Positions 39,220 through 40,791 of a stretch of DNA of 64,000 nt are shown piece after piece. The stretch's first letter is position 1; the number at the start of each line of letters is the position of its first letter. The notes under the pieces were generated by a model. That model worked only from the letters and a program-made list of their open reading frames with translations. It did not search any database and was not told the DNA's origin. The stretch comes from a virus. The position numbers were made by a program, and so were the translations under genes. The stretch lies in IMG/VR virus record IMGVR_UViG_3300042475_004151; one strand, 5' to 3'.

Positions 39220-39941
39220 TTAATAAATTCTTTTACTTTAGTAACAGCTGTAGATGCTGGTGTAAATTTTGGTTTTTGTTTAAGTGCTGATTTGATATCT
39301 TTATTTATTTGTTCAACATCAGCTTTTGATTTAGCTTGTTCTTCAGGTGTTTTTGGTTTACCTTTTGCTTTTGATGTGTCAAAAAATCTACGTTTAATTT
39401 CATTTTCATCAAAATCAATTTCAGCGTCTTTAGGATCATTGTTAATGATAACTAAATTATCACCAAATGCTTGTTGATATGTTTCAATATTATTACTAAT
39501 ATCTCTCCAGGTTCTTAAAACAATACCAGGCATTAATGAACGATCTCTATTAGCATTACGTTCAAGTGATGTTATAGGAGATACATAAATCATAATCATC
39601 ATTGTCTCATATCCTAGTGTTTCTAGTTCTTCTTTCTTTTTGAGAAGTGGTCTAGAAGCCGCTCCAGTACCGTCAATAATAACATCGTTAAGATTAGATA
39701 ATACATCCGTGTATTTTTCTTTAGTTGCTTTTTGAGCTACAGCCATTAATTTAGCTGCTTGAGATAACTGTTCAGGATCAAAATCTTTTTGTTTCATTCC
39801 TATTCCTGATGCTTTAAGTAATTCTTCATAGGTGTCGTCAACATTTATTATTTTAAATTTTGACAATGGTAAAGATTTGGCTATAAATGATTTACCAGCT
39901 CCAGCAGGTCCAGCTAAAAATATTGATTGTGGTGTACTCAT
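39216..39941 (-). CDS. P-loop kinase (zeta-toxin/AAA_33-like)
   Basis: LAGPAGAGKS, INVDD, IIDGTG and LERNANRDR motifs. Confidence 0.8.
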   Translation of the reverse strand: MSTPQSIFLAGPAGAGKSFIAKSLPLSKFKIINVDDTYEELLKASGIGMKQKDFDPEQLSQAAKLMAVAQKATKEKYTDVLSNLNDVIIDGTGAASRPLLKKKEELETLGYETMMIMIYVSPITSLERNANRDRSLMPGIVLRTWRDISNNIETYQQAFGDNLVIINNDPKDAEIDFDENEIKRRFFDTSKAKGKPKTPEEQAKSKADVEQINKDIKSALKQKPKFTPASTAVTKVKEFIK

Positions 39942-40471
39942 TATTTACCTGTTACTACTATTGGTGTGTTAGGAGCAATTAATTCTATTTCTTCTGGTTT
40001 AAGCGAATTGGCTAATTTAGTGTTAAAATCTGCCACATATTTATCTAAATTTAACTCACTTGCTTTATCATAGATTGCTCTTAATTCTTTATTTTTAAAA
40101 CCATCTATATCAATTTCTCCTGAACCATTTAATCCTGGAGATATTTTTACTCCTTCTCCATTTTGAGTTTGTACTATAAGATTATTTCCAACCCATGGTT
40201 TTTTCCATTTATTATCACTTGATTTAATTTGAACTACTAAACCTTTATTTTTATATTTTTTATCCCATAGACTATCACATGATACTCTAATATTTGATGG
40301 TTCAATTTCTAATTTAACTGCTATATTATTAATAAATTTTTCAAGAACAGTAGCAATTTTATCATATAATGCTTGTGTTTCTGATGGTGCTTGAAATGGA
40401 TAAATTTCAGCTTGTCCTTCATTAATTCCAGCTAATTGCCGCATTCTTTTAACTTCATTAAGTTGTTTCAT
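39941..40471 (-). CDS. Putative internal head protein, class A leader
   Basis: MKQLNEVKRMRQLAGINE leader. Confidence 0.75.
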   Translation of the reverse strand: MKQLNEVKRMRQLAGINEGQAEIYPFQAPSETQALYDKIATVLEKFINNIAVKLEIEPSNIRVSCDSLWDKKYKNKGLVVQIKSSDNKWKKPWVGNNLIVQTQNGEGVKISPGLNGSGEIDIDGFKNKELRAIYDKASELNLDKYVADFNTKLANSLKPEEIELIAPNTPIVVTGK

Positions 40472-40506
40472 TATATATATAATTTATCTAGTAGTTTAAT
40501 CATTTA

Positions 40507-40791
40507 TTATTTTACAATAGAAGGTAAATAAGTAGCACCTTTATACCATCTTTTAGAAATTTTATGTTCTTCTCCCTTTTTATCTTTCACTGTAAAAGTT
40601 GATGGATTAATTTTAATAACAGTTCCTATCTGTTTTTCACCTGTTGTTCCTATATTTTGTAAAGGTACATTTAGATAAAATTTTACTTTATCTCCAATTT
40701 TTACATCAAGTGTTATAAAATCTGTTTCTTTAGATTCAATAATAATCCCAGCCAATTGCTGCATTCTTTTAACTTCGTTAAGTTGTTTCAT
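40507..40791 (-). CDS. Putative internal head protein, class A leader, SH3/KOW-like body
   Basis: MKQLNEVKRMQQLAGIIIE leader; VKIGDKVKF...GTVIKIN..TFTVKD. Confidence 0.75.
   Translation of the reverse strand: MKQLNEVKRMQQLAGIIIESKETDFITLDVKIGDKVKFYLNVPLQNIGTTGEKQIGTVIKINPSTFTVKDKKGEEHKISKRWYKGATYLPSIVK

Follow-up and report, generated by a model that had tools for sequence, protein, structure and literature searches.

We found that four genes in a 64,000-nucleotide stretch of phage DNA (IMG/VR virus record IMGVR_UViG_3300042475_004151; this whole stretch is called the window below) encode proteins that begin with a short leader resembling the C-terminal tail of the putative prohead scaffold encoded in the same window. 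Sequence comparisons strongly support the view that this leader, termed class A, is real, widespread, exchangeable among unrelated proteins, and a mimic of the scaffold tail. The best explanation as a whole, which we consider fairly probable, is that the leader is a removable capsid-targeting propeptide that docks where the scaffold tail docks and is released by the prohead protease. The window belongs to a T4-related phage whose head module lies on the minus strand. The genes and leaders concerned are listed below (ORF, open reading frame; leader genes are named by their start positions, and leaders are scored against the scaffold tail with BLOSUM).

22365..24254, minus: portal, T4 gp20 family (PF07230, E 5e-67)
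16688..17317, minus: prohead protease, gp21 family (Peptidase_S77; PF03420, E 2e-28; phrog_207), the predicted leader remover
15376..16494, minus: putative prohead scaffold at the gp22 position, 372 amino acids, acidic, between the protease and capsid genes
15385..15414, minus: C-terminal motif of the scaffold, VRRMQQLAGI, followed by IK and the stop
13649..15346, minus: major capsid protein, gp23 family (PF07068, E 3e-75; phrog_138), the candidate binding partner
40507..40791, minus: 94-residue ORF, class A leader and a small beta-rich body of unassigned function
40735..40791, minus: its 19-residue leader MKQLNE-VKRMQQLAGI-IIE, predicted cut after E19; score 44/47
39941..40471, minus: 176-residue ORF, class A leader and a body of unassigned function
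40418..40471, minus: its 18-residue leader MKQLNE-VKRMRQLAGI-NE; score 40/47
30341..30652, minus: 103-residue acidic ORF, leader at 30593-30652 (IKKMQLLAGL-ITE); score 31/46
19137..19649, minus: 170-residue acidic ORF in the head module, leader at 19590-19649 (IAKLKRLAGL-ITE); score 24/45

The scaffold tail and its likeness to the leaders

We infer that the 372-residue protein is the scaffold from its position, its long predicted helices, its disordered acidic middle, and the lack of a mass spectrometry (MS) note on its positional equivalent in phage PA5oct, whose neighbors do have one, as expected of a digested scaffold. No Pfam, PHROG, or PDB match was found for it. The AlphaFold model has helices at residues 3-63, 242-339, and 356-367. 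In this model (12-sequence alignment), the tail is a single 12-residue helix (356-367) after a low-confidence linker (339-355), with a predicted local distance difference test score (pLDDT) of about 77 at residues 361-370. Across the clade, the tail follows the pattern hydrophobic-x-R-[MW]-Q-K-L-A-G-[IL] and forms a short helix. It was found in the gene preceding the capsid gene in all listed related loci except L045; this gene carries a conserved C-terminal helical element of the kind known from P22. Within the variable acidic middle, residues 104-113, 167-178, and 219-228 form conserved islands (L[DE]EILAELE twice, ELKDIIRDV), each predicted to be helical.

An earlier note made from the letters of the window alone (the original prediction) had described the leader as a transplanted copy of the scaffold's C-terminal peptide. 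As it stated, the scaffold ORF (16494 to 15376) ends VRRMQQLAGIIK and gene 40791 begins MKQLNEVKRMQQLAGIIIE; the other leader genes begin MKQLNEVKRMRQLAGINE (40471), MKKQINEIKKMQLLAGLITE (30652), and MKKPINEIAKLKRLAGLITE (19649). The DNA likeness that it saw between 15382 and 40741 consists of 27-nucleotide stretches with three differences, all at silent third positions. In genes 40791 and 40471, 44 of the first 48 nucleotides are identical and the bodies that follow are unrelated (blastp E 2.0), and the longer stretch said to be common to 30652 and 19649 extends over a further 38 residues at 37% identity (E 0.013). The description as a copy fits the 10-residue (30-nucleotide) core and fails for the flanks MKQLNE and ITE, which have no in-register counterpart in the tail. 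The upstream IVE site of the tail also lies four residues further from the motif than the upstream site of the leader. The window leaders are 18-20 residues long, and their scores of 44, 40, 31, and 24 against the tail compare with only 12-16 for the next-best scaffold stretch (14 for the 40791 leader). On the minus strand of the window, LAG[IL] occurs in five places only, namely, the scaffold tail and the four leaders. ESM Atlas searches with the 40791 and 40471 bodies gave only leads under 0.9, and a PDB search with the leader profile returned only GCN4-type coiled coils, which we rejected as chance matches. Apparent homologs of the large gene ahead of the protease (17310-18995) in L002 (4867-6423) and L012 (6667-8421) begin with a class A leader, and the window copy has another N-terminus by eye.

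A search matrix trained on 42 distinct scaffold-tail 10-mers alone gave 118 matches in 2,187 ORFs, with 81 at most 20 residues from the C-terminus, 37 at most 30 residues from the N-terminus, and none internal; reversed and shuffled ORFs gave no match. A recount on a slightly larger ORF set yielded 81 scaffold tails (L045, a wrong-frame call, was left out), 44 N-terminal leaders, four other C-termini (one a 25-residue fragment), and again no internal match. The loci overlap and were de-duplicated by identical sequence only, and these counts do not equal independent genomes. The claimed specificity for the tail held up: among matrices made from 112 windows along the scaffold, only that of the tail behaved in this way, with 42 N-terminal matches and 10 elsewhere (0 and 2 in reversed sequences), compared with 13 vs 51 for the best unrelated one (residues 169-178). 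Furthermore, the gp21-type sites proposed to flank the leader are present as a sequence pattern, with [ILV]xE after the motif in 38 and before it in 32 of the 44 leaders (background, 7% of body windows). Leaders that end in an L/I-X-E-type site, in a genome that encodes a gp21-type protease, correspond to what is known of the T4 capsid targeting sequence (CTS). The A-G pair does not vary across 67 tails and 30 leaders while silent sites are scrambled, so the motif is conserved at the level of protein and not of DNA.

A C-terminal AG[IL] pattern gave 19 non-scaffold matches vs 10-14 in controls, six of them convincing. The motif or a variant ending in RAGIIK was seen at non-scaffold C-termini in L001 (9067-9858), L003 (8599-9390), L027 (7638-8498), L076 (7262-8218), L077 (near 7994), L242 (630-1178), and XacN1 ORF271, and several such carriers adjoin protease and scaffold genes. 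We could not establish that all leader classes are copies of scaffold islands: window 169-178 was the only one with an excess, a weak one, and its 12-mer version gave 8 of 33 matches N-terminal and 14 reversed matches, three being terminase starts.

Exchange, origin, and spread of the leader

In the original prediction, foreign ORFs pick up the leader as a cassette, which is borne out by the occurrence of the same bodies with leader A, with another leader (class B, MKKADNF..[WF].E), or with none. Among 37 members of the 40471 body family, leader A is present in 9, leader B in 22, and neither in 6, and both leaders are always joined to the body at an xxE point. A tree of these bodies alone (P0049 was left out as an incomplete sequence) requires four leader changes; carriers of A sit within the B carriers in two places, and supported branches force three changes for leader A. 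The leaderless gene of this type in L249 was confirmed in the DNA by an in-frame stop eight codons upstream. The two leaders presumably do the same job, as they replace each other on a single body. For the 40791 body, the 11 homologs at 72-78% identity comprise one with the leader, one with a decayed leader, and nine that are leaderless in the gene calls. One contig (run X15) that matches only 40503-40707 fits such leaderless forms. IMG/VR scans with the two bodies found nothing.

Several other leader types recur on the minus strand of the window. Class B leaders start at 20496 and 27609, and further N-terminal leaders with xxE sites are of the types MIxLxxILxE (32913, 34764, 35773, and 39219), MKKSxLKxxIxE (33741, 34184, and 63806), and MxIxIxE (33452, 36101, and 32197). 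The MKKSELKQLIRE leader type weakly resembles the internal scaffold helix 168-180. One related contig (run X10, depth 3.5; a single weak record) joins the promoter region to a kinase-like gene (39941) across 39923-40806; both leader genes are absent and 40 other letters lie in between.

A literal DNA transplant from the phage's own scaffold gene, as in the original prediction, was not upheld. In 30 leader-tail pairs from 20 loci (L019-L021 left out), silent identity was 75/163 (46%) vs 44% after permutation (p = 0.27), and in genomes with W at tail position 4, W occurs in 0 of 19 leaders; a recent transplant is rejected on these two results. At the amino-acid level, leaders were only slightly closer to their own tail (5.73 vs 5.46 identities of 10, p = 0.043), with related genomes being non-independent. 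Because silent identity in this window alone is 18/22 vs 13.3 expected from codon usage (p = 0.02), occasional copying from the scaffold gene may have occurred. Most simply, these sequences can be read to mean that the motif arose from the tail long ago or converged on it, and then spread among accessory genes with selection acting on the peptide.

Diversity of bodies behind the leader, for which the original prediction had suggested a survey of related genomes, is considerable: the 44 leaders sit on 31 body families, and a set of 129 bodies falls into 84 families. The leader profile matches 1,607 representatives of 50% protein clusters at E 0.001, and among its best 150 matches the first motif lies at most 20 residues from the start in 145 of 149. 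About 5 of 134 leader proteins sampled from these best 150 (16 short proteins were dropped from the alignment) have a Pfam match, with Imm5 in two and NT5C in one. Leader genes may stand in tandem, as in L251 (7 among 9 ORFs in the 6.1 kb of 1244-7351) and L233 (three genes). Two motifs were seen in 11 of the 149 top matches (P0075, P0076, P0081, P0090, P0100, P0154, P0169, P0205, P0219, P0223, and P0083); in some, an internal Met resembles a start, and the appearance is that of adjoining leader genes fused into polyproteins for cutting by the protease.

Among phages with a name, the nearest relatives by capsid identity are Flavobacterium phage immuto (56%), Mel-JY01 (51%), and RM378 (38%). 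We scanned whole genomes of immuto, RM378, XacN1, PA5oct, and RaK2, and parts of Mel-JY01 (183 of 190 kb), Atu_ph07 (390 of 490 kb), and RsoM2USA (137 kb and a 10.6-kb head region of 344 kb). A looser form of the tail occurs in RM378, XacN1, LR756511, PA5oct, Atu_ph07, RaK2, and RsoM2USA; the scaffold tails of T4 and cyanophage S-CAM3 are of another type without this motif. N-terminal copies were found in immuto (two), XacN1 (ORF218), Atu_ph07 (gp111 and gp257, the latter with a Nudix domain), and RsoM2USA (ORF68 and ORF380), and RaK2 ORF050 has an imperfect one. Two genes at the scaffold position end in the motif, namely, L019 35627-36868 (immuto, "DNA polymerase phi-like protein") and L161 18879-20123 (Atu_ph07, "Rad50 ATPase"); these annotations are probably mislabeled scaffolds. 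The region of the window is present in 24 lake or freshwater DNA sequencing runs, nine of which may be where it came from, and none of the runs listed as holding it is RNA.

A putative late-promoter motif lies ahead of two leader genes.

40812..40820, minus: AATATTTAT, 21 nucleotides upstream of the 40791 start
30670..30678, minus: AATATTTAT, ahead of gene 30652

The same motif is found upstream of the portal and terminase genes and in the gap ahead of the scaffold, a distribution that fits late expression of the leader genes, and [AT]ATATTTAT has 21 minus-strand copies vs 5.8 in shuffles. A scan for sigma-70 promoters and terminators stayed at chance level (20 vs 23.2; 0 terminators). Upstream of each of the small genes 41559, 41833, and 42072 is a repeated TGACCGCGA element, and 40791 is the first gene after this block, behind the putative late motif. 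A 160-residue ORF at 40819-41301 has three KRGRP repeats, which we take to be AT-hook-like. The region 42456-45904 holds a lipoprotein-like gene and a large outer-membrane-receptor-like gene that appear host-derived by eye only.

A proposed role in head assembly and its rivals

Two steps of the mechanism that we propose can be read from the sequences: the scaffold of the clade ends in a conserved short helix, and unrelated accessory ORFs gain the motif at their N-terminus as an exchangeable module of ~55 nucleotides that ends in [ILV]xE, mainly by spread from accessory gene to accessory gene, with new copying out of the scaffold gene playing the lesser part. During prohead assembly, the motif would dock at the site of the scaffold tail, most likely on the inner face or in the N-terminal region of gp23, so that the protein would become enclosed. 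The gp21-type protease would then cut on both sides and free the body in the head, as the L/I-X-E specificity described for T4 gp21 suggests (PMC9026906). Finally, the body could be ejected into the host as a fast-evolving counter-defense or takeover protein, or could serve as core filler. We consider it quite likely that the leader targets proteins to the head and reasonably probable that it shares the docking site of the scaffold tail, and we propose gp23 as the receptor site tentatively. A prediction of the 40791 leader (28 alignment rows) in complex with gp23 (40 rows) scored 0.00 in two runs with controls unfolded, and modeling of gp23 from its 40 rows gave low quality (pLDDT 58; predicted template modeling score 0.37); these results speak neither for nor against the proposal.

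A broader view can be put forward with some doubt and as one joint claim. In a broad T4-related branch that comprises freshwater phages of Bacteroidota, RM378, XacN1, and Rak2-like jumbo phages, accessory proteins may be loaded by natural mimicry, in that the shell-docking helix of the scaffold is copied over 10 residues and this copy competes for the same gp23 pocket; the motif may belong to a set of zip codes that can replace each other (classes A and B and further ones, part of which echo different helices of the scaffold); and thousands of unannotated proteins may thereby be marked as injected head cargo.

Weak and indirect evidence on the presence of leader proteins in virions comes from PA5oct, in which 7 of 8 non-scaffold ORFs at 12 bits or more carry a GenBank note of electrospray ionization tandem MS, compared with 73 of 218 (Fisher p = 0.003). 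This comparison covers 40-237 kb with our own ORF calls (227), which recovered 80 of the 82 typed MS-positive proteins (the listing of the paper has 93). In RaK2, the top match ORF050 is a "virion structural protein" in RefSeq. Several results weigh against a role as packaging propeptide. With length-binned permutation, the PA5oct enrichment drops to p = 0.08, or to 0.17 at 10 bits. The motifs concerned lie inside the proteins, chance may account for three of the eight (the capsid protein, ClpA, and an ATPase), and the MS list of this phage is permissive, with enzymes such as ribonucleotide reductase on it. ORFs 68 and 380 of RsoM2USA are not among the 10 bands reported as identified, for which abundant bands only were cut (PMC8504454), gp111 and gp257 of Atu_ph07 are in none of the three virion clusters that the main text of its report names (PMC6102473), and our literature search turned up no virion proteome for immuto. 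In RM378 and in the scanned 183 of 190 kb of Mel-JY01, the tail is present with no leader above decoy level. The bodies are mostly acidic (29/44 and 84/129; basic only 2 and 1), unlike the T4 internal proteins (IPs), which are described as basic (PMC9026906), and the T4 CTS is reported to target the core, not the coat (PMC5694885, PMC9026906).

The main rival explanation builds on this last point: the motif would target the core by binding the scaffold (in head-to-tail polymerization), the portal, or the protease. The affinity of the T4 CTS for the core and the co-purification of IPs with gp22 (PMC9026906) are in its favor, the conserved N-terminal and 242-339 helical domains of the scaffold and its short internal islands could provide the receptor, and the tail is one short helix, unlike the 35-residue helix-turn-helix of P22. 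On the other side, contacts between the scaffold and the coat's N-terminal part are reported for P22, T7, SPP1, and 80alpha (PMC9546572), the coat-binding domain of P22 is described at the scaffold C-terminus, and the tail here is recognizable across capsid proteins that are only 32-56% identical, as a shell-docking element might be. Core targeting appears unlikely to us, if deserving of serious attention. It is more doubtful still that leader proteins are packaged without being cargo and serve in a gp67/gp68-like manner, as additional scaffolds or acidic fillers that adjust the size of the head and undergo digestion rather than injection. The predominance of acidic bodies leaves it possible that many of them are fillers and not injected effectors, and this explanation would also suit the location of 19649 inside the head module, the leader that L002 and L012 have on their homologs of the core-position gene 18995, and the proteins with two motifs (11/149 top matches). 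Many bodies are nevertheless compact, basic or neutral, or enzymes (the 40791 body, the Nudix protein gp257, Imm5, and NT5C), bodies also exist without a leader, and their high turnover suits host conflict better.

Short terminal amphipathic motifs often act as degrons, and a tag for docking to, or degradation by, some other machine (a host or phage chaperone or a Clp-type protease) could be envisaged on this general ground, as could a decoy that jams the head assembly of competitors, which might not follow the tail variant of its own phage (0/19 W). We regard this as very improbable, given that the leader genes follow the putative late promoter that also precedes head genes and that gp21-type sites frame the motif; a decoy would also poison the phage's own assembly. 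Least credible is an expression or recombination cassette, in which the common 5' end would be preserved because it serves late transcription, the start of translation, and homologous gene shuffling, and the match to the tail is a by-product of helix and codon bias. The 44 of 48 nucleotides common to 40791 and 40471, the AATATTTAT motif ahead of 40791 and 30652, the tandem arrays, and the run X10 contig without both genes between promoter and kinase gene would all fit such a cassette, but the scrambled silent sites around an invariant A-G in 67 tails and 30 leaders do not. Moreover, TATTTAT lies within 70 nucleotides of only 10 of 44 leaders, the motif also occurs C-terminally and internally, and flanking protease-type sites would be senseless for a DNA element.

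Comparison with known systems

The closest precedent for a capsid-targeting propeptide is the T4 CTS (PMC9026906, PMC3012670), which the original prediction had missed. In T4, ten residues are reported to suffice for packaging and gp21 cuts after L/I-X-E (PMC9026906); the proteins that bear the CTS vary among T-even phages (PMC9026906, PMC3012670, PMC5694885, PMC4437046). Like the CTS of IPI, IPII, and IPIII, the leader is a short putative N-terminal propeptide on unrelated bodies that ends in L/I-X-E for gp21 (PMC9026906, PMC3012670). The accessory genes are diverse in both cases, the portal-protease-scaffold-gp23 machinery is the same, and the tandem leader arrays recall the variable ip1 locus of T4 (PMC4437046). 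Unlike the CTS, the leader has no likeness to MKTYQEFIAE, the tail matrix scoring at best -5.9 to -10.8 on IPI, IPII, and IPIII; it has sites on both sides, its motif also occurs C-terminally, and its bodies are mostly acidic. The T4 CTS does not resemble T4's gp22, gp67, or gp68 (best 13/51), whereas the leader here matches the scaffold tail.

If our explanation is true, a targeting peptide can arise by copying a scaffold docking motif, which would also point to its receptor; for the T4 CTS, the review passages concerned describe the receptor only as "the core". At least 1,607 protein clusters would be flagged as candidate head-packaged proteins, a pool of the kind in which T4 keeps its anti-restriction factors, and there would be a sequence rule for a virion-delivered counter-defense arsenal together with a minimal loading tag. 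The 10-residue marker finds unannotated scaffolds (immuto, Atu_ph07), and the cultured phage immuto 2-6A has two leader genes, namely, 111675-112139 and an ORF at 25061.

In P22, the scaffold C-terminus fused to foreign cargo is reported to load that cargo into procapsids (PMC9962691). The likeness lies in a C-terminal scaffold element and, as proposed here, in loading by it, with coat binding being presumed in our case; the P22 system uses a 35-residue helix-turn-helix in man-made fusions, in contrast to a natural N-terminal motif of ~10 residues with predicted release by protease. The propeptides of SPN3US and phiKZ are similar in that identical N-termini occur on diverged head proteins, are cut by protease, and have a proposed targeting role (PMC5694885). 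They differ in being mostly longer than 100 residues and in belonging to another phage group, and the portions of that source available to us report no link to a scaffold tail (PMC5694885). Further literature was compared in part (PMC5852040, PMC5259590, PMC7824862, PMC13282480, PMC2839356, PMC3622015, PMC7318152), and a literature search, with most subscription papers out of reach, turned up no paper that describes this motif or a natural mimic of a scaffold tail. The principle of capsid targeting is already known from the T4 CTS, and what is new here is a putative targeting tag that matches the helix of the scaffold tail.

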